The notes under the pieces are model-generated. The model made no database searches, was not told the origin of the DNA, and was given only the letters and a program-made list of their open reading frames with translations. From Saccostrea cucullata (lineage: Eukaryota), in the NCBI RefSeq assembly GCF_032062105.1, contig NW_026936290.1, forward strand, positions 124,001 through 188,000: 64,000 bases of DNA, in the 5' to 3' direction. Positions within the stretch are counted from its first letter, which is position 1, and each line of letters opens with the position of its first letter. Shown in pieces: positions 9,377 through 63,349 of the stretch. The translations under genes were made by a program, and so were the position numbers.

Positions 9377-12300
9377 ATGTTCGGCATTGCCCTCCAGTTT
9401 GTTCTGTACTTGTTTCTGCTGGATTTGGGAGGTTGGTTTATTTTTACTTTCACTGTACATGTGTATATATTATATTATGTCATTCTAATCTCAATTTATC
9501 ATACACGTGGTCATATCACTTAACACTTATGTCGAATGCTGGTTCAGATAAAGTTATTTTTATATCTTTAAATTTTATTTAACGTTGTTTATATGAGATT
9601 AGAAAGAATATCTAAAAATTTAGCTAATAAAAATACTTTATTCAACTGAACTTTTAGTGACTTGTTTTGATAATTTCGTTCTAGCATACTTTTATCATAT
9701 AACATTTTCCATCATATATCAAAACCAACTAAATTAAGTAAAAAGCTGAATTTTGAATTGAATGTGAAAAAAATCTTCATATATAATTTGATTCAATAAT
9801 TATATTTTTGAACTCATTTTTAACTACATATCTTTAAAAACAGTAAATACAAGCATATACCGGTATATGCCGTCTACCAGTTTGTAACAATTTTATTTTA
9901 CACTATATTCCAAATATGAGAGTATTTAGTATCTTGTTAAACTATTTCCATTCAGTAAAAGGTTAAATTCAGCAGAACATTTTAGGATTCCTATCTGCAT
10001 TAAATCAAAATATCCTGCTGCAATGTGAAGAATTTAAGTTTTTTCGAAGTTGGAATTATATAAGTACTGAAACCTTAGATTTATTCTTGCTATAACTACG
10101 AGTAAGCTTCAAATTTTAAAAGGATAATAAAATCAGGTAATTGCTTTGTCTTAAAATTGATTGTTTTAAGCAGATTTTTTTTTTAATAAATTTTATAATG
10201 TTTTAATTTAATTATTTTGTCGAAACGATACATTCATGTGAACTTAAAATAAAGACACACCAGAATTTATCCTGTCTGTTTCATATGAAGAGATTTTAAT
10301 GACTGTAGATGGCAAGGATCTACTAATAAACTACCTTGTTTGACTGTCATCATGACTTCAGCTTTTTCATCGTAAACTTTCCCTATATGTGTAGGAATAA
10401 TTCACTATCACCTGCTTACTAGTATGATGTTTATATCTTTTATAACTTTTATATAACTTACAAATCATTTATAAAAAAAACATAACTTGAAATAAGCTTC
10501 ATTCCTTATAATTTAATTTCAATGTAGACAATGATACAATTTTTCCATCGGAAAAAGGCTTCAAATATAGCATATTTTAATAGTTAACGGCAAGCGGAGT
10601 AATACGTTTTTGACGTAACTCATTGTGACGTAGGCAAGTTATGGTATACAAAATGGATAAAACTGTTTAACCAATCAAATGACGTGTTACAACTAATATT
10701 AAATAATTTTAAAACAAAACATGCTACTAACTTATAAGTTGATGTAACAAGGATTTTAACAATCTTGATCAAAGTCGGCATTTCGTACATTTTATGGCCA
10801 ATATAATTATGATCTTGTTAGCAAATATGACCAAACATTTGGTCTTTGGTCATATTTTGGCTGACGTTGTTTCATACCATCTGAAAATCCTTTAATTCCA
10901 TAGTGAATTGACTTCAAAATGTTTCGCCCACCTTATCAGTAAAGAGAGATCACAGCGACCGTGACTGATCAACAAGGGAACATTTGCTCCTCTCAGGCTC
11001 CCCATCACACTATTTCCAAGGGCCTATGTTTTATGCACTTTTTACGTGTTTGTATTGCTTATTAGATTATTTAAAGTCTATCTCTATTTGTTATTTGCGC
11101 TTTTACATAACATTTGGATACAGTACTATTGAAAGCCTCCTCCGTCGAGCGCTCACACCCTTCGTAAGCCCATAGTATCAATTAGATGGCCGAATATTTC
11201 GTAAAATAAAAAAAAAAAAACATTTTGATATAAAAAAGTTTTAAGATCAGTCAAAATATGATCGACCCAGTGGTTAGTTTTACTTGCTTAAAAGGTCATT
11301 ATAATAATCAAAGACTTTTCATGAGATCGTTGAAATCTTTGTAACATCAAGTTATCCATCAGTAGTCTGTCCCATTTTAAACATTGATCACAAAGTCTAC
11401 ACTCGTAATATCATTCTGAGTATGGAACAAGATAAGGAGAGGCCTTATTTTGATGTATAAAGTTGCCAAAATTTGTAGATTTTCAAAATTCGACTGCTAA
11501 AATTACAATATAATTCAAAATAATAACATGATTGAAGCTAACACACAAAAATATTATTCAGGGATATATGCAAAGCAGGTGCAATTTGGCGACACTTCAA
11601 ACTGTCCGTCAGTGTGGCTGCCCGTCAACGGACAACGCCAGGACAACGTACTGTATAAGACCAAACCTATGTTTGTATTGGACGACAGAAGTGTCAAAGA
11701 GGGTTATCTTCCCGGAAAGTCATACTCACGTAAGTTCTGATCTGTTGCAACTCTTTGTAACTGAAACAAATAAAAAGAATTAGGAAATTAAGAAAATATG
11801 ATTGTACTGTGAGATTTAGGGCGAAACTATTTTGCGAATGGTGTTTTGCATCATTTTGGACTCATTGTTCGCACACTAAATGTCTCAGTTATAGTAGCTT
11901 AGATAGATTTGGTTGAATCGGACACCTTGGCTTAAATTTGAAAACAAGCATTGTGTACCGAGACAACCACAAAATAAAACTTGTCAGCCAGCCCTGTCCA
12001 TTTCTACAGTTCACGTGAATGCCCAGGACAGCGATAGGAAGTTCTCGGACGTTTTGGTCTGGGCAGAAGGAAGTGGGCTACAAGGTTGTAGCACAGGCAG
12101 TTTTGATACAAACCCAACCTACTACCATCAACCGGAAAACTGCTCTCATTTGGTTAGCCGGAACTCCAAGTTACCAGGGCACACGTTCCTTTTCACCTGG
12201 ACAGCACCACTGTGTGGTTGCATTACCATTAGGTGAAGTTTCAATCTAAAAAAATAAAGTGATTCCTTGAAATGCTTAGAGTGGTTGATATTGCATTGAT

Positions 12301-23039: not shown

Positions 23040-23272
23040 AAAAACTTTTCTTGCTGATTGGGTCACTGTGTAGACCATAGAACTTGCAAAATATGATGTT
23101 TAAACTGAAAATGTAATATGCTTAATCAAATTGTTTGTAGATAGCTTTCCTCATTTTAGAAATTGTTTGTACATACAGCAAATTTTTATGAATTAAATCA
23201 ACTGATAGATATAAACCATAAATCCATTAGAGTGATTAGGGTATCTTGCTTCACAAGTAAGGGAAGTTCAAT
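23040..23272 (-). mobile_element. Old Naiad-type PLE fragment abutting the RTE 3' end
   Basis: Reverse complement of NFPYL, YGLYLSQLI and KFYG remnants. Confidence 0.6.
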
Positions 23273-23273
23273 T

Positions 23274-25645
23274 CCTTACCTTTACCTTAATTCTCTTCGT
23301 GCCAGAAGGCACACAAGGCCTGAACATCTCTTTTTCACTGGGGCCGGTCTGCGGCTGCCCGGAATGCCGTGTTCCAGGAATTCCAGTCTGCATTATTTCG
23401 CATCCACCACAATCCGTCGCCATATTGTCTTGGGGCGGTCTAGTTTCCTTCTCCCCTTAGGCGTCCTCCCGAAGGCCACAACACAGCCATCTGTGGGATC
23501 CTTTCTAAGCACATGGCCGATCCAATTCCATCTCCTCCTCCTCACCTCGCTACTGATGCTTTTTGATTCTGACATTTCCAGAACTGTCTTATTTAATATA
23601 TGATGTTGTCATCTGACATTAAGATCCCTCTGAGGCACTTGGTCTGAAAGATGTCAATCTTCTTTTCCTCTGTCTTGATAAGCTTCGAAGTCTCACATCC
23701 ATATAACAATACAGAGAGGACCAGGCTCTTAAAGACGGAGACTTTTATCTTTCTACTGATGTCTGTAGTGTTCCAGATGTTAGCAAGCATCCTGAAGATT
23801 GTACCGGTCAGTGCTATCCTCTTCCTGGTGTCAGCAGTTCCTACTCCCTCTTGGTGACATTGGCGCCGAGGTAAGTAAAGCTGTCCACCTCGTCGGCTTC
23901 GCTGTTTCCATCTGTCGGGCTGATTTCACTCCTGCTTCAACACTTTGCACTTCTTGGCATTAAGCTTGAACTTTTGCGGAGTTTTCTTCCAGTTTTGTTG
24001 TCTTAGATTGTAGATCGTTCATTACTAATGACAATAAGGCAATGTCGTAAGCAAAGTCAAGGTCTCCAAGCATAGTGGTGAAGTCCCATCTAATTCCTTT
24101 TCTCTGACAGTCTGTCGCATCACCAAGTCTATATAACTAGGAGAAACAAGAAGCCTGACATGTAGCAGCTTTGTTTGACACCAGTCATCACAGGAAAAGG
24201 GTCTGTGGTCTCGTTGTCTTCAATCACAGAACACCGAAATATGTCATACAGGGCTTTGACCATTAATCAATTTTCTGGGTATTCCATATTTCTTCATTAT
24301 GACCCAAAAGCTGTCTCTGTGCACCGAGTCAAAAACTTTCTCAAAGTCCACAAAATTGATGTACAGTGTAGCATTCACCTCGTTGACTTCTTCCAGGATT
24401 TTCCTAAGGATGAAGATCTGGTTAACAGTCCCTCTTCCTTTCCGGAACCCTGACTGCTCTTTCCTCGGGATGCAGACAACTCCAGCCTGTATTCTGTTGA
24501 TGATGATCCTGCTGAGTGCTTTGCTGGGTAGGGGCAGCATTTAGACTCTCCTCCAGTTGCTGCAGTCCTGTAAGTTGGCTCTCTTGGGAATTTTACAGTT
24601 CAGTCCTCTGGTCCATTCTTTGGGTACCTTTTCCTTCCATAGCTAGTCAAAGGTGTGATTCAATTCCTGGTTGCCCTTATCAAGGTCTGCCTTTAACATT
24701 TCTGCAGTTATTTTATCTGCTCCAGTGACCTTCCTATTCCGAAGCGTCTTAAGTGCAGTCCTTATTTCCTATGTGGCGGGTGGCTCAAGCTAGATGTCTA
24801 GCTCTTCTCCCTCCTCATGTTCATCTTGTGGTGGTGACTCCAGAGTTTCTCTGTTGAGTACTTCCCCAAAACGTTCCCTCCATCTGGCAAGCCCTTCTTT
24901 ATTTTTCAGCAGCTCTCCATATTTGCGCTTCACCGCTGCTGTTTGTTTATTACTCTTTCTTCTCAGCTGCTTTACTATGCTGTACAGTTCCTGCTGTCTC
25001 CTGTTCTCGGCTGCTTTCTGTGCTCGCTCAGCTTTCTCTGCCATCCATCTCCTCTTGTCCTCTCTCGCACTTTTCTTGACTAGTAGTACTTTGTCTTTCT
25101 CCCTGTAATTTTCCTTCAACTTTGCCTTGACTCTTTCTGATCTTGTGCTCTCTATCTTTGTCTTGATGTCTTTTCTTTCATCTATCAACTTCCAGGTGTT
25201 TTCGCTGATCCAAGGTTTACTTTTGCCTTTCCTGTAGCCAAGTACTCCCTCTGCTGAGTTCACATATGCCATCTTCTGCTGTTCCCAAATTTTATCAATA
25301 GGTCTTTCATATCCATTATTGTTACTCCCTACCTTAGAGTTGAGGTCCCCCATGATAATAATGATGTCGTTGTTATTACATCCATCAAAGGTCTCTTGTG
25401 ACTCCTGATAGAATTTGGCTTTCTCTTCCTCTTCCTTTTTATCATGTGGCGCATAAGTTTGGATCACCGACACCCTCCTGTACCTTGAATAGAATCGTGC
25501 TGTAATGATTCTTTTACTGACAGGTGACCTACCATGAGTGATTTCATGCCTGCCGGTTGGTCATTATAGAAACTCCTCACTCATGGAGTTCTTCATCCCC
25601 GCTGTATATGACGGTCTGGCCCAAGGTCAGTCTCATCTTCAAATT
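23274..25645 (-). mobile_element. RTE-clade LINE, frameshifted (APE endonuclease plus RT)
   Basis: IQTYAP...IIMGDLNSKVG (APE); EQSGFRKGRGTVNQIFILR, FVDFEKVFDSVHR, DLDFAYDIALL, SVLLYGCET, RRWNWIGHVLR (RT and C-terminus); 3' (TAAGG/TAAAGG)n tail at 23274-23289. Confidence 0.92.
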
Positions 25646-26242: not shown

Positions 26243-26547
26243 GTCTCCCGCGTGGCACAGTGGTTAGAGCATCTGCTCTAGAGTTGTGAAGTAAGGAGTT
26301 GATCCTTACGTCACAGGTTCGAATCTCATTGTAGGACATGGAGACTGGTCCTTTGGATAAGACCGTATAAACCAAAGTCCTGTGTCCCAGTGGGTGCTGG
26401 CACGAAAAAGATCTCTCCCTGCTCAATGGCCCCGAGTGTCGAGTATAGGACAAACTTTGCAGCTATCCACCGGCAAGTGGTAGCGTCTCCATATGAGTGA
26501 AAAATTCTTGAGAGGGATGTTAAACAATATACAATCAATCAATCAAT
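26243..26547 (+). mobile_element. tRNA-derived SINE
   Basis: A box TGGCACAGTGG, B box GGTTCGAATC, about 300-bp body, (CAAT)n tail. Confidence 0.85.
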
Positions 26548-28955: not shown

Positions 28956-31744
28956 TCAGCTCTTCTTGCTGAAGTAAAATACTGCTGCTATGGCAACCAT
29001 ACAGGATCCTACAACGATAGAGAGAGTGGTAAAACTCGGAGAGGGGGAGTACTGGAGAGCCGCACTCTGTAACGAAAAAAAAACAAAACATTGTAATAAT
29101 CAGTTACCTACACATGTTTGTCTGGTGTTTTGATGCATTCAGAAATTGGTGTACCAGTAAACTGCACACATCACTGTATTTGTTAAATATACCCTATACA
29201 GTAAATGAAACTTTACTGAACATTTTTTTTGGTGAATGCTTTTCACATTAATTTTTTCTACTGTATATATATGTCATTGAAAACACAATAAATTACACAA
29301 ATGTCAATATAAGGAGAAATGATATTGCTCCTATTTAAGCAATAATTGTATATATATACATTTGTGGTATCTCTCCATTATGTAAACATACAGAGAGCAA
29401 ATATCTTCAATTCTGTATGAAGTTTGTCAGAGGTCAGAGGTCAATACGTGACCTAATCACACGGCGCAATAATATCTACCGGTACACACAGGGACTGGGG
29501 GCAAGTCCCTGTGCAGTACATAAATTATAAAATGACCTGCTCTACTTGCTTTTCTCGTATAAAAATGAACAAAATAAGCAAGTAAAATGATAATTATTTT
29601 ATTTACAATGTAAACAAGTATTTCTTACAGTTTTTTGGCTATCGACTCAACCTATGTACATAGAGAAAACTAGCGTTTGTTTACATTTTTTTTTTTTACA
29701 CTTTTGTCAGCTGCACAGTCTTGACGTTCATTCTTATTTTTTTGGTAGACCTTTAGTTAAATTTTCATGATAAACTATTATTTTATCTTTAAATTTTACT
29801 CACGATAAATGTGTAAATCTAATGGAAAATATCATTGCATTCATGCCATGAACAGCTGCCAAACACATTGGCATTTTCGTAGTTCAAAGTAAAGCTGTCG
29901 CCAGTGTCTCCGTGTTTACCAGTGTTTTACGATAAGTATGCCTCTAGTTATTACTGAAATGGTAGAATGTTTTCGATCAAATTGCAAATTAACTGGCTCG
30001 GGAAAGTGTCTCAATCCATCGGATCCATCCATCCATTTCCGGCGACCGAAATTCCTCCAACTTTTATCATCAAACCTCGTACGTGTTTCTTGTGTCTTTT
30101 CAGCATCGATTATCAATTTTCACGAATAAAAATATTCCCAGAAAACACTCTGTTCACTATTACTGATCACAAGTAGCCTTTCACAAAATATTCCCTTCGA
30201 AATAGATTTCTTGGCCGAAGCGTAACCGCCATACAAGCCGATTTACACATTGCGTAATTTTTCAAAATCTACGACGGACGGTTAGTACAATGATTTAAAT
30301 TCGAAAATATTCAATTGTCTGTCTCAAATGTATATATAAGTAATAAATAACAAGTTTATAAACTTCAATGGGAATTGAAGTGGGTCGGTACGTGATAAAA
30401 TCTTCTGAGAAGACCTTCGGCCTTCACAGGATTTGATCACGTGACCGACCCACTTCAATTTCCATTGAAGTTTATAAACTTGTTATTTATTTCTTAAATA
30501 CATGTCAATTATATATTGTATACAAGGATGACATACCCATCCCCCTTGTTGAGCAATCCATCCAGCTATCTTCTCCTTGATGAATCGAACCACATGACTG
30601 ACAATGATCTTCAGGAATTGTGCAAACTTTTTGGCTCGTTCCTTGACTACTGTCATGGTGATTCGGTAAGCGAGGCACATAAGAGCGGCTACACGTCCCC
30701 AATTAATTTCATCAGCAAACAGCCTGCAATGGTACAAATAAATCATCATAACAGTATGTAGATGGATTTTTTGGGTGAAGTATCTCAAAGATGATGGTAA
30801 ATGCTGAAATAACTTTAGTTTACTTCAGCTATACCTTGCAACAATTGCTCAACTTGCTAAACATAACAAAACTTGCATAAACCATAAGCATCCTCTGCAT
30901 GTACACTTAGTTTTTCAAAGTAAAGTTTGCAAAAATTAGAACTCTTTAGTCCCCTTTGGGAATGGTGAAAGAAGCTCGTAAATGTTAGTGATTCATACCA
31001 AGGAACACAGTGTTTTACAATTATTTCGAGACAAAGCTAAATCCATTTATTTTTTAACTCTTCCATTTTGACATTGATATAAGTGGGACATAATCTAATA
31101 GAAATTTATACCCACTTTTTAGCCACTCCAGCGAACACGTCGTAAGCCGTTTCCTCCGTCACATTCAGCTGAGAGATCATGTCTTTGAAATCATCAGCGT
31201 ATCTCCTGTTAATATCGTCACCTATTCTGGCCAACTGTCTACCAACCTGGGAGGCTCGACTACAAAATAGAGGACATTTATAAAATAATGTTGATTTGTA
31301 AACAGTTTTGATAAATTACAGAAATAATTTATGATAAAATTAGAACATAGTAAGATGTTATTATAATTATTTAATAAATTTTCTATTCTTTTTAACATTT
31401 GAAAAATTCACTAAAAAGATAAATCTTTAATGCGACTTTGACAATCAGTGGAAAACTAATTCAGTGACTATTTATCTCCTCTTGACAAACCTGACTGGAT
31501 CTGTTGTAAAATTACACAGCTCCGGGACTGTTGGCGTGGAGGTGTCGGGCGGCTCTTCCTCCAACTGATGCCGATAACTCTCGTAAATAAAATTCCTGAT
31601 CACGTCCTCCGCCTCGTCAATTACGTTTTCCTCTGTGTCTGGAGTCATTTGCTCGGAGTTAGGGGACGGAATCTGTCGGACGTCGGAGGTGGGAGGTACT
31701 CGTCTCCCATCGTGGGTCCCAGACCCTCCGTCCCAGTACGCCAT
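28956..31744 (-). CDS. BAK1: Bcl-2 homologous antagonist/killer (about 231 aa)
   Basis: Exons 31744-31491, 31259-31116, 30723-30537, 29066-28956 (696 nt, GT-AG). BH3 QVGRQLARIGDDINRRY, BH1 LFADEINWGRVAAL, BH2 IAGWIAQQGGW, C-terminal TM LSIVVGSCMVAIAAVFYF-SKKS; 5' UTR acceptor at 31798. Confidence 0.96.
29351..30496 (-). mobile_element. Hairpin-ended non-autonomous element, copy 2, in the last BAK intron
   Basis: Palindrome 30337-30496 centred on gaagaccttcggccttc; adjacent caaatgtatatataag (30325-30340) is complementary to far end tatatatacatttg (29351-29364). Confidence 0.7.
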
Positions 31745-35890: not shown

Positions 35891-38800
35891 TCAGTCAATC
35901 TCCAGATCTGTGTCACTGTCCAAACAAGTGTCCTGAAATAGAGTCAAAACAAAAATAATGAACGCAAAAAAAAAAACCAAAGTAGGGCTTAATTAGAATT
36001 CACTCATTCTTAAAAAAACAATTAAAACAAATTTAATGTGTTTTGTACTGTATTTGATTTAAACAGGAATAAAAAATAAATCAGGCCTAGAGACCATGCA
36101 TAGACTGAGAACAGACTTAAGTCAAAATTTGATATTGAATACTCCGGTAGCTTGTAATTTATAACACAAATGTTATGTAAAATAATCCAGTTTGTGTAAT
36201 ATTCCAATTAAAACATGATTTTAGGTAAAAATTTTGTTTTGGTGTTAAAATTAATTCAAAACTTAATTTGATTGAAATTTTGACATAAGCCTTATCTCCA
36301 TGTATGCCATGGTCTTGGGGCCTGATCTCACAAGGGCTTATCATAATCTATATGCACATATGCCAACTTTCTAACATGATATGTTGGGACATGGCCCCTC
36401 ATTCATGTCAAATGTCTGGTCATATCCTGTGAAGATATTTTATAAGCTTCAATAGGGGGGTTGAAGGATCATTGTTGAGGGGTGATGATGTGATTTTGGG
36501 AGTGTGGCCTATGTATATGGGTCCAGTTTTGGCATTATGCTTTTCATTTTTCTTGATTTTAACCACCCCTACATTATACTAAACATAAATATGGTCACAA
36601 ATATGAAGCCTGTATATAGGTTTTCTGATAAGCATCTGTGAGTAATGCTAGGAAAATGCCCCTTCCCCTGATTAGCCTTACCCATCCACCCTGATCCACG
36701 ATCCAGGAGGCGAACTTATCCGCCACAAACTCCGCCGCTAAGTCCTTCACCTGCAGCGCCACCGCCCCTCCGGCCCCCGCCAGGGTAATGGCTTTCTTTG
36801 TGAGGTAGAACACAGCTGCTATCTGATCCCAGCTGTTTCCGGGCCCCACCGTGTTATTTACCGTCTCCTGGAAAGTCTGGTAGGTGGCGTGCTTAGCGAT
36901 CTCCAGCGCGGCGTCCTTCACAGAGTCAGGGGACACATTCAGCTACAGAATAATGTCATCAACTGGTATGTATAAATACAGGTATGACTACTGACATATG
37001 GTGCGTATATAGAAAAGAGTCTTATATGTATATTTTGTGTGTATAGTTATTCACATTAAGAACCAGTTTATAAGAAATAAACCAAATGACAGGCATTAGC
37101 ACACTGAAGTATTCATTATTTGGATAATTGTAAAAACTCACAGCAAAACTATCCCCAAATTCCCGAAGCCTGTCTCTTAACTGTCTCTCCAGCTCCGTCA
37201 ATCCTTCACCTGTAAATAGCATGTACTTAAAGATGACACATTTTATACTTTATATGAATTATTACATTTATATATAACTTTCATTCTAATAATTATAAGT
37301 AATATTGCATAGCCAAAAAATCATGGCAATACAAGCTCCTTCCAATTATATTTTGGATTAAAAAAAAAGTTACTTCAATAGACAAAACGGTTTACAGTCA
37401 ACTCGTACACAAACCGACTCATACACAAACCGAGTCGTACACAAAAAGTCAACTCGTACACAAATCAGAAGTCAACTCGTGCACAACATTTTATTTACAA
37501 CTGTTATGAATTACTTTTATATGAATGGAGTATAATCAAGAAAAATACAATAAGGACAAAGAGATGTGTTAATTTATTATTTTTTTATAAATATTTTAGA
37601 GGTTTAATTAAACAATAAAATGCTTTCTTTGTTTGTTATTACTGGAATTAACGGAAGAAGCTGTTGCAGAAAAAATACATAGCCCGAGTAAGTGGGTTAT
37701 GTAAATTTTTTCTGCAACAGCTGCGACCGTTAATTCCAGTAATAACAAAAAAAGAAAGACATTTCATTGTTTATATTTATATCTGTTTAAATAATCATTT
37801 AAAGTAGGATTAAAAAGATTAATTATTGTATTAATGATGCGAACGTCTTTATACGTTTCATTGATGGAACAGCCACTGATCAAGAAATCTGTACAGGCGA
37901 CATGCCGACTGTAGTTCATGCAGTGATTAATGCAATGGGTTTTCTTAAAATATAAAGGAGAAAATATTCAGCGGATGTAAATATCATTTAATTAACCTGG
38001 CTTCTCTTGTTAAGAATTCAAACAATTATTGTTAAACCAACACAAGCGCGGCGGTTTTGTGTACTGTACGAGTTGACTTCTCAATTTTTCTACACTAAGG
38101 AAAAGAATTCCTTAAATCACACAGGAAAACCTATGTAGGAATGACAAAAGTCTTGTGTACGAGTTGACTTCTGCTTTGTGAACGAGTTGACTTCTGCTTT
38201 GTGTACGAGTTGACTTTTTGTATACGACCTGGTTTGTGTACGACTCGGTTTGTGTATGAGTTGACTGGACACCGACAAAACACATACAGTGTAAATTATT
38301 TCTTAATCAGCTGAATAACAAAATGTACCCACCATCTCTCTCATCGACCCCCGTTAAGTTTGGCGTCCTGGCACTGACGCGTCTGCCGAGAGTGTGTTCT
38401 ACAGAACTACTGCCGCTTTCCGATAGTGGACTGGTGGCCATATACTGGTCTCCTATATGAGCTAACTTTTCAGCCACGGCGGAGTACAAGCGGTCCTTCT
38501 CTGGGTCTGATGGCTGGGACACTGCATGTCTGGGACACATTCCTAAAATAGAAACTGAACTTAAGAGATACATGGAGAATAGAGAGGGTTGCCTTATGTA
38601 ATTCAGTTAAACTCGGTTATAATGAAGTCACTGGGACCTGTGAAATTGCTTCGCTATATCCTTATTCGTAATATCCGTATAAGAATTCATTAAATTTATG
38701 TAGCTGGGGATTCAAGATAACTTCGCTATATCTCTGAATTCACAATATCTGTGTGCGTACTAAACAAGTTTTACTGTATCTGTTAGTTGCCGATACTAAA

Positions 38801-61540: not shown

Positions 61541-61588
<48 letters not shown>
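61541..61588. repeat. (TA)n microsatellite
   Basis: About 23 TA units directly abutting the inverted tRNA-containing element. Confidence 0.97.
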
Positions 61589-61591
<3 letters not shown>

Positions 61592-62350
61592 CACATTTTA
61601 CAACAACTCTTAAACTACAACAACTCTTAAACTAACATAACTGCCCTAAGTGAAGAAATATTAATATAGAAAGCACAAAGAAATTCACTTTTACATGGAT
61701 ACCCACTTCCGCCCCAGCCCGGGGTTGAACTCTCGACCTTCGGAATCTGTCTCCTAGCAGTGCAGGAACAGCGCGCTAGACCGCTCGGCTATCTAGGCAA
61801 GTCAAAGAACTTGCTTTCGATGCCGATGGAATTCTCGCGGCACTGTCCTACACTACACGGTCATTGAGAATAGAAGTGAGATACAGTTATTTGGATATTA
61901 GTTTTAACAGAGGATTGTTACCAATACATGTTGTAATGAAATTAATTATTATTTATAAAGCACATTTTACAACAATTTCTTTGTGCTTTCTATATTAATA
62001 TTTCTTCACTTAGGGCAGTTATGTTAGTTTAAGAGTTGTTGTAAAATATGCTTTATAAATAATAATTAATTTCATTACAACATGCATTGGTAACAATCCT
62101 CTGTTAAAACTAATATCCAAATAACTGTATCTCACTTCTATTCTCAATGACCGTGTAGTGTAGGACAGTGCCGCGAGGATTCAATCGGCATCGAAAGCAA
62201 GTTTTTTGACTTGCCTAGATAGCCGAGCGGTCTAGCACGCTGTTCCTGCACTGCTAGGAGACAGATTCCGAAGGTCGGGAGTTCAACCCCGGGCTGTGGC
62301 GGAAGTGGGTATCCATGTAAAAGTGAATTTCTTTGTGCTTTCTATATATA
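61586..62350. mobile_element. Inverted pair of a 352-bp tRNA-containing repeat unit
   Basis: 61586-61975 (-) and 61976-62347 (+) are reverse complements with different start points; tRNA-like core TAGCCGAGCGGTCTAG ... GAGTTCAACCCC. Confidence 0.85.
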
Positions 62351-63146
62351 TAAGCAATCCTGTGGATCATGTGTCCCAAAGAAGGGTAATCGTCAACTGT
62401 TGACCATCACGCCAGCCGTAAGTCTTATGTATTATGTAAACGGAACATTCTTTAGATTTCTTAAAATTTACGAAAATCAACTTTCAAAGACAAGTTGTTG
62501 AAATCGCTGTTATATCAACTTATCTGTAAGTAGCCTGTTCCGGTTAAAAATTGATCGTAGTTGGAACATCTAATAAGTTGGGAGATGAAATCATTTCATC
62601 ATAAACCTAGTAGTGTATCAGCCCTGAGATAGCCAAGAGAGCACCAGGGAGGTAGAGCTGACTCGCTCTCAGGGCTGAGATATCTCTGAAAATATAGAAA
62701 AGAAGCTCTTGCATTCAATGCCAAAAAAGAGAAAAAATTCGGCAATCATAATCATCTTTGTATTTCTACAAGGATTTGCAACATTACTGAAAAATATCTG
62801 TGGAATCTTTTTTCAACTATTAAGGACTTTTAACATTAGAAACTCCTCTATAGGGAATTACTTTTAGGAACTGATAATACTGAAATGAATGAAAGTCCGT
62901 TGCCCGTTCGTCCACATATTCAAAAAAAAACAAACTAAAATATAAAAAACCAGTAATTATTTAGCTGTTTATTAATTCATATGTACTTATTTCAGATGAG
63001 TTTGCACTCAAAGACAGACAACTTTTGTTTCATGAATTTTTAAACCTTTTCAAGAATTCTGTTCATTAGTTATTCCCACTTTTTTTCAATCCCGCATGAA
63101 GTCGATTTGTTTGGGAAAATAATTACACTGGGCACATTTATGGATG

Positions 63147-63349
63147 TACGAAAGCCCAGAAGGCTCATTCGAGATTTGAGGTTCGAAATTCGAGTTTCGA
63201 AATTCAAGATCCAAACTAACCAATCAAAAGCGGGTTCAAATGTTTAACATGCGTTTGATTGGTTAATCTGGATCTTGAATCTCGAAACTCGAATTTCGAA
63301 TCTCGTATTTCGAACCTCGAATCTCGAATGAGCCTTCCGGGCTTTCGTA
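63147..63349. mobile_element. IS3EU-like palindromic MITE
   Basis: tacgaaagccc...gggctttcgta, near-complete 203-bp palindrome with 7-bp tcgaaat/tcgaatc repeats; 6-bp TSD TGGATG (63141-63146, 63350-63355). Confidence 0.88.

Follow-up and report, generated by a model that had tools for sequence, protein, structure and literature searches.

What kind of element comes to lie as two head-to-head copies inside a (TA)n repeat, with a Pol III promoter in its interior and no ORF, and what moved it there? The question is raised by a locus near the right-hand end of the 64,000-nucleotide stretch of Saccostrea cucullata DNA that we analysed (the window), in which a 352-bp unit occurs twice on opposite strands, joined 5'-to-5' and flanked by (TA)24 and (TA)5. 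We hold it to be moderately probable that the locus records the insertion of two copies of a non-coding, high-copy, non-autonomous retroelement of 352 bp, which carries a Pol III promoter and was pasted into TA repeats by a Penelope-like enzyme from a multi-unit RNA. The parts of the locus are listed here, with the sense strand defined as the one that bears the promoter boxes (A box and B box).

61541 to 61588: (TA)24 at the left end, the likely target site.
61586 to 61975, minus strand: minus arm, with its 3' end toward the left (TA)n; 374 nt are templated (unit + 22), and a 17-nt duplication is added.
61599 to 61632, minus strand: 17-nt tandem duplication close to the minus-arm 3' end.
61710 to 61798, minus strand: tRNA-derived part of the minus arm, with the A box at 61791-61781 and the B box at 61730-61722.
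61974 to 61977: 5'-to-5' arm junction, where 2 nt of microhomology (61974-61975) are present and no trace of TA is left.
61976 to 62347, plus strand: plus arm, 372 templated nt (unit + 20), or 374 (unit + 22) when the 2-nt central microhomology is counted, 3' end toward the right (TA)n.
61976 to 62035, plus strand: unpaired centre of the palindrome, 60 nt, equal to the offset between the two rotations.
62015 to 62128, plus strand: AT-rich predicted stem domain, containing the second TGTGCTTT-TATA site (62047-62057, plus coordinates).
62131 to 62192, plus strand: segment complementary to the tRNA-derived segment, predicted to form a long rod with 62218-62309.
62197 to 62214, plus strand: conserved hairpin that caps the rod and spans the first base of the tRNA-derived segment.
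62213 to 62301, plus strand: tRNA-derived part of the plus arm, with the A box at 62220-62230 and the B box at 62281-62289.
62334 to 62347, plus strand: first TGTGCTTT-(C)TATA site, at the plus-arm 3' end, a recurrent 3' end among other copies.
62343 to 62352: right-hand (TA)5; read depth of the family ends at 62353.

The coordinates and periods given in an initial annotation of this DNA were recovered exactly, the terminal repeats being spaced 369 nt in the minus arm (352 plus the 17-nt duplication, which is likely the product of slippage or re-priming) and 352 nt in the plus arm. As that annotation also held, the arms are the same unit with different cut points: aligned in register, the units show 8 differences over 352 positions, with a rotation offset of 60 nt. 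Each arm is one 352-bp unit plus 20-22 nt, and the inverted arms (61659-61975 and 62036-62352) are 97% complementary over 317 nt. No poly(A) or simple-repeat tail is found at either outer end, where the unit sequence passes directly into the target (TA)n.

The A box (62220) and B box (62281) lie 61 nt apart and are present in both arms; identified with consensus sequences that we take to be those of the two boxes, a pair at such spacing arose in 12 of 10,000 shuffles. Judged from these boxes, the family is likely to be transcribed by Pol III from within, and the core is internal rather than at the 5' end, as previously described, with 177-237 nt of unit upstream of it in both arms. The Pol III core described earlier holds as to its boxes, but "tRNA-containing" was an overstatement: ARAGORN at default settings calls no tRNA in the whole window, Rfam gives no tRNA match at E<=5 or 10, and the T-stem is broken. 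A cloverleaf at about 62213-62301 is drawn only at a relaxed ARAGORN score (a setting that returned 105 and 63 overlapping, mostly absurd calls on the dimer, from which we used one cloverleaf drawing), and in it the acceptor stem is partly paired and about two of five T-stem pairs form, so that the intact cloverleaf of a functional tRNA gene is absent. The Leu identity of the segment is presumed from resemblance. Further A-box/B-box pairs at tRNA-like spacing occur in the window at 26253 (plus strand) and 42762 (minus strand) and are possibly SINE heads.

The sense strand of the minus-arm unit contains no run of four T, a state also found in about 5% of 2,000 shuffles, which is a weak hint, from the sequence, that Pol III may read through; a T6 run at 62202 is private to the plus arm.

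How far this unit represents a family can be judged from sequencing reads, at least 20 runs from 12 studies containing part of it among the runs listed. We compared the plus arm and its right flank with a DNA run (X1), a second species (X8), random-primed RNA (X6) and oligo-dT RNA (X24). Depth in X1 is 0.3-1.1 million across all 17 full unit bins as against about 84 in the nearby flank (two bins taken as single copy), and it is near zero directly after 62353. The resulting unit-to-flank ratio is about 8,000, a figure drawn from summed contig depth and raised by overlap among short contigs; from the lowest variant column it would be about 950, and the family probably numbers thousands of copies. 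X8 gives the same high-depth picture. Upstream of 62213 depth is maintained, over the 237 nt that precede the tRNA part as well, and we found no place around the unit where many molecules begin or end. The joint from unit end to unit start (62327>61976) is present in four of four runs, in contigs of X1, X6 and X8 and in 29 RNA reads with 20 starts in X24. The family is therefore circularly continuous, as had been proposed, with reads that cross from one unit into the following one, although this joint is expected equally from tandem arrays or permuted single copies and, because it occurs in DNA contigs as well, cannot show a circle.

Head-to-head inversions also arise through LINE twin priming, and the locus might on that account be a twin-primed or rearranged insertion of an ordinary LINE-driven tRNA SINE present in tandem arrays. 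The tRNA-derived A and B boxes and the SINE-like size and copy number would agree with this, as would the tandem and palindromic SINE structures known from bivalves in the sections consulted of PMC11481361; bivalve tRNA SINEs share with the unit their A/B boxes, a length of 300-350 bp and a high copy number (excerpts of PMC11481361 and PMC4758252). Against it stand the high depth all round the unit, without a common molecule start or end, and the absence both of a tRNA head at the 5' end and of an A-rich or simple-repeat tail, features by which SINE2 elements are known and which, together with circular continuity, set the unit apart from those SINEs. The six S. glomerata SINEs listed in the source sections at hand are 295-343 nt long, with ATT, AATC or AACT tails and Thr, Ser or undetermined heads. 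We regard this explanation as improbable.

A second bivalve family invites comparison on account of its promoter. Helenus (TRIMp3) is non-autonomous, has an internal tRNA-derived Pol III promoter with a non-functional tRNA fold, and occurs in oysters, including S. glomerata (sections of PMC10886601), so that the unit could in principle be such a TRIM, with the promoter inside an LTR, in tandem form. Helenus, however, has LTRs, a PBS, a PPT and 4-bp duplications and depends on Gypsy (same sections), none of which applies to the unit: it has no purine run of >=9 on either strand, its ends are not TG..CA, there is no 4-bp target duplication, and the arms are inverted, and four unit motifs had no match in the Helenus sequence file. 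This reading is largely refuted and scarcely credible. Background on bivalve SINEs, TRIMs and Sm-alpha was taken from portions of PMC11481361, PMC4758252, PMC6934838 and PMC2770079.

Searches for the unit elsewhere were negative within their scope. Unit motifs revealed no copy in the supplements of PMC10886601 (1 file), PMC11481361 (8 files, with no SINE sequences among them), PMC8557442 (1 file), PMC4758252 (all but file 1) and PMC10294476 (12 of 33 files). A 21-nt unit pattern had 0 matches in viral, metagenome and genome contigs, and a 20-nt pattern had 0 in viral contigs. Looser patterns returned 103, 21 and 120 loci; compared with both arms, these 244 gave a longest alignment of 36 nt around the seed, which we dismissed as chance, and the 21 metagenome loci contained no tRNA.

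What then determined the ends of the two arms? Free cut points, as first supposed, are not what the outer ends display. The 352-nt circle holds exactly two TATA 4-mers (61991 and 62054, plus coordinates), both directly following TGTGCTTT in the minus-arm unit, and both outer 3' ends of the locus (2/2) fall at these sites, the minus arm ending at the second and the plus arm at the first, with an offset of about 62 nt on the circle. The first site is reused by other copies, eight X8 contigs stopping at 62352 and then continuing in TA; one X1 contig (record 8) has its 3' end at 62345 and a 200-nt arm that begins at its inversion joint. Strand switches account for 4 of the best 15 of 42 joints, each at another place, and the two with contigs listed both read 5'-to-5'. 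In this sample (24 of 550 loose ends and the best 15 of 42 joints, rather than a family-wide map), 3' ends lie at preferred sites and 5' ends vary, which is the pattern expected from target-primed reverse transcription with internal priming. Fixed ends, which the initial annotation had named as a point against its proposal, are accordingly seen in part: the 3' ends are at preferred sites but the 5' ends are not constant. The Penelope-like hallmarks that it had invoked are borne out by the inverted arms, by both 3' ends lying outward on (TA)n, by variable 5' truncation and by strand-switch joints in other copies, and the microsatellite target is seen at the locus as well as in the eight X8 contigs entering TA at the same site.

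Under the reading that we favour, transcription by Pol III would begin in a tandem source copy, at its tRNA-derived segment, and continue through the next unit, as the lack of a run of four T in the minus-arm unit, which is near the family majority, would permit. The helper's endonuclease would nick both strands of (TA)n, and each nicked 3' end would start synthesis internally on the RNA, at one or other of the two TATA sites in the unit, giving two cDNAs whose outer ends lie about 62 nt apart, like a Penelope "tail", and which would be joined 5'-to-5' via the 2-nt microhomology. That the template extended beyond one unit, in tandem or circular form, was also claimed initially, and it follows from the copying of sequence upstream of the promoter. 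From its own promoter a lone arm would transcribe only the last 135-197 nt, which probably makes this locus a dead end, the likely sources being tandem copies. A similar situation is described at second hand for Sm-alpha, a lone copy of which, having its promoter at the 3' end, is unable to propagate, tandems being the sources (excerpts of PMC6765202 and PMC2770079).

The helper is probably Naiad. According to sections of PMC8557442, Naiads prefer (TA)n and carry no canonical hammerhead; they occur as inverted 5'-truncated copies and partial tandems, one end of which bears a tail. The unit resembles them and non-autonomous PLE derivatives such as MRC1 (same source, in part) in its (TA)n target, inverted and tandem copies, tail-like end difference and lack of a canonical hammerhead; it differs in having no ORF, in its internal tRNA-derived promoter and in showing no likeness, by eye, to the ends of Naiad_Sglo, and its end offset is about 62 nt as against 30-40 in the Naiad-type elements covered there. 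An anole PLE studied in vitro primes at two internal RNA sites, the intervening stretch becoming the tail (PMC11167929, in excerpt); no homology links its priming site to the target, whereas both ends of the oyster arms lie at TATA. A broken Naiad copy lies in the same window at about 46300-47900, close by eye to the published Naiad_Sglo consensus, and makes Naiad the plausible partner that had been suggested. In the consensus file of Craig et al., three of four short unit motifs are absent and the fourth occurs once, in an algal Chlamys element.

Several other repeats and genes lie in the window. Within the Naiad copy's short TA run, and bordered on both sides by (TA)41, lies an insert of 142 bp (47136-47277) that can form a hairpin; TTTGTGTTTTC, found in the insert's inverted repeat, resembles the motif before the unit's 3' end, and the insert has no significant sequence in common with the unit (best E 0.079). 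A MITE-like palindromic element of about 200 bp, made of 7-nt repeats, occupies 63147-63349, and minisatellite arrays at 52433-52801 and 37401-38256 contain opposite orientations close together. Frames at 23160-25560 (minus strand) resemble a decayed LINE; 24793-25560 had no Pfam match. Bcl-2-family coding pieces lie at 30483-30824 and 36595-36942 (both on the minus strand) and a B-box/NHL gene at 55420-56925 (minus strand), whose protein finds its nearest relatives, at 61% and 56% identity, in clusters that include Ostrea edulis and Crassostrea virginica members.

An origin at the level of DNA must also be weighed: the locus could be a foldback element, a MITE at TA or a dispersed satellite, or else two repeat copies misassembled from short reads. 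An 8-nt inverted motif does lie beside TA at both outer ends, but it is internal to the unit; strand switches occur at four different places and the centre joint of this locus is not among the best 15 of 42 joints, which indicates that the palindrome was not amplified as a whole. As to assembly, PLE-type inverted structures are described as troublesome for short reads (sections of PMC8557442), and a local error in this palindrome is possible. At each of seven listed arm differences (7/7, p 0.016) the minus arm has the family-majority letter and the plus arm a rare one, a skew that could reflect two RNA templates, partial gene conversion or the collapse of a repeat in short-read assembly. The arms nevertheless have the rare alleles 62115 and 62169 in common, which speaks for one source. 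With the RNA evidence described below also against a DNA-level repeat, we consider these explanations highly improbable.

Depth over the unit differs between the two kinds of RNA library. Relative to DNA depth in X1, unit depth is 0.070 in random-primed X6, compared with 0.002 for a neighbouring repeat, and 0.00016 in oligo-dT X24, compared with 0.0008 for that repeat, figures that come from one run per kind, summed contig depth and different animals, with X6 possibly containing DNA. The neighbouring repeat, used as depth control, belongs to another family, adjoins the insertion at 62480-62563 and has relatives at 10705-10794 and 11329-11389. One allele set prevails in X6 (for example, T at 62171 in 74% as against 18% in DNA), and the data fit an abundant RNA without poly(A) that stems from some source copies, in keeping with the RNA stage postulated at the outset. 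The 408 X24 records come from both strands, and 53% of them continue into unrelated sequence, which points mostly to copies inside host transcripts. Such copies are likely subject to A-to-I editing: A>G changes at 62021, 62026 and 62095 are found in about 17-30% of oligo-dT RNA reads and in <0.5% of DNA depth, and A>G to G>A changes number 43 to 17 in X24 and 6 to 6 in DNA, an RNA-DNA contrast that is not significant (p 0.14). Between 62102 and 62311 RNA depth is higher, which we did not take for a sign of a shorter transcript, since it follows GC content (r 0.76).

Compared with its shuffles, the monomer folds better (z -4.6 linear, -3.3 circular), with the antisense strand also scoring z -2.7 to -3.7. 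The main predicted feature is the rod formed by 62131-62192 with 62218-62309, capped by the GCAAGT/ACTTGC hairpin (pair probability 0.96), and it engages the strand that would otherwise form the T-stem. Of the two hairpins described initially, this one holds; the other, GTGCCG/CGGCAT, is seen in a short local fold but lost in the whole-unit fold, and the C present at 62169 in about 98% of family depth weakens it and strengthens the rod. Variants in the family were used to examine the predicted pairing, 26 of 40 listed rows (139 in total) being analysed after exclusion of 7 arm differences, 1 row in the terminal repeat and 6 in the flank. Among 13 variants above 5% in X1 or X6, at sites paired in a fold predicted from one arm, 11 keep the pair (p 0.027, with 55% of transitions expected to do so by chance), and 12 of 13 do so when the two-sided change of 62174 C>T with 62235 G>A is counted (p 0.005), leaving one that breaks it. 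Supported in this way by family variants, the RNA is predicted to fold into long rods in which an antisense stretch upstream pairs with the tRNA-derived part, a pairing that suggests that this part serves as promoter rather than as tRNA. The conserved pairing and the RNA enrichment together argue for an RNA stage. An origin of the antisense stretch as an inverted duplicate of the tRNA part is unconvincing, with 17 of 500 shuffles scoring equally.

No ribozyme could be recognised in the unit. The layout had been likened to a hammerhead, a comparison that we abandon: the sense strand has no hammerhead core within one mismatch, Rfam yields no ribozyme match for the unit, and the proposed stem II is not conserved. 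An HDV-like search gave 0 matches in either arm (its loose descriptor matches 9 of 30 shuffles), and the sense strand has no hairpin-ribozyme loop. On the antisense strand, a weak hammerhead-core-like match without proper stems and one local hairpin-ribozyme-loop match were rejected, as were Rfam miRNA matches, which are below gathering scores and reflect the palindrome only.

These features bear most directly on a variant of our reading in which promoter and helper are the same but the template is a unit-length circular RNA, in effect a ribozyme-free retrozyme. The reverse transcriptase would go once round and displace about 20 nt of its own product, with the two arms coming from two circles. 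Both arms being one unit plus 20-22 nt, this accounts better than a linear template for their equal lengths (372-374 nt), which have a chance of about 1% under uniform truncation and were noticed after the fact. The z-score of the circular fold, the predicted closed fold of a monomer that begins at 62213 (nt 1-8 pairing with 330-338), the RNA found in random-primed rather than oligo-dT data and the one-sided differences at the 8 sites at which the arms differ are further points for a circle, and 352 nt matches the 350-390 nt of mussel retrozyme circles in the portions consulted of PMC7229834. Its weaknesses are the lack of any recognisable ribozyme on the sense strand, the presence of the end-to-start joint in DNA contigs too, and the 200-nt arm of the inverted copy in X1 record 8, from which it follows that full turns are not the rule. 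The broken T-stem, moreover, makes the tRNA part a doubtful RNase P/Z substrate and the rod sequesters the tRNA half, so that tRNA-type processing of the unit RNA is unlikely. We keep this circular template as a tentative minority reading. Tandem read-through is favoured over it because no unknown cutting step is needed and because it matches the description of Sm-alpha; that one or other of these two Penelope-like-element readings applies we hold with good confidence.

A more specific version would let a tRNA mimic act as promoter and also as the cutting signal that replaces the hammerhead, in a ribozyme-free circular RNA parasite of Penelope-like elements. The end of a first unit would pair onto its own tRNA half and so free that of a second unit, which RNase P would cut at its first base; the resulting 352-nt monomer, its ends held together, would be ligated by a host enzyme, and on both strands of (TA)n a Naiad reverse transcriptase would copy one full turn of the circle and about 20 nt more. 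This particular chain of events is unlikely, and a circular RNA formed by any route is possible though doubtful.

Two described systems work in much the way proposed for the unit. Like Sm-alpha and Sj-alpha of Schistosoma, it is a tRNA-related, apparently Pol III-transcribed unit with tandem and dispersed copies (PMC6765202 and PMC2770079, in part); Sm-alpha combines its promoter with an active hammerhead, whereas the oyster unit has the boxes and no hammerhead, and the Sm-alpha descriptions in those parts do not include a Penelope-type inverted (TA)n insertion. Like animal non-LTR retrozymes, it is a self-paired unit, according to the predicted fold and the pairing-preserving variants, within their range of 170-400 nt, with monomers and tandems linked by the end-to-start joint and abundant RNA (sections of PMC7229834 and bioRxiv 10.64898/2026.07.22.740005). 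Non-LTR retrozymes are proposed there to depend on Penelope-like elements, mussel units measuring 350-390 bp, and the 2026 preprint ties retrozymes to PLE pseudo-LTRs, with no mention of tRNA in the sections at hand (bioRxiv 10.64898/2026.07.22.740005). The type I hammerhead that defines retrozymes is absent from the oyster unit, and no tRNA-derived promoter is reported in retrozymes; their circles are demonstrated, whereas for the unit a circle is only possible and no pLTR homology was found (Naiad_Sglo, by eye and with four motifs).

The unit works like an animal retrozyme or Sm-alpha, yet lacks the hammerhead by which these are defined; it has the promoter of a SINE without a 5' head or tail, and that of Helenus without LTR, PPT or target duplication. 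We found no description of a ribozyme-free PLE passenger with a tRNA promoter in the open-licence literature, and Repbase or Dfam may name the family otherwise. Such families escape both SINE finders, having no 5' head, and retrozyme finders, having no hammerhead. Both LINEs and LTR elements have passengers with Pol III promoters, SINEs in the former case and Cassandra and Helenus in the latter, and to our knowledge the Penelope-like class is not usually thought to carry them. If the family is moved by a Penelope-like reverse transcriptase, the same passenger strategy would extend to a third retroelement class. The unit would then also stand as a ribozyme-free counterpart of the retrozymes, a case relevant to the suggestion that PLEs carry hammerheads as dispensable passengers. 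As an abundant, protein-free substrate of 352 nt with two defined priming sites and paired ends, it would make the formation of PLE tails and inverted copies testable in vitro.
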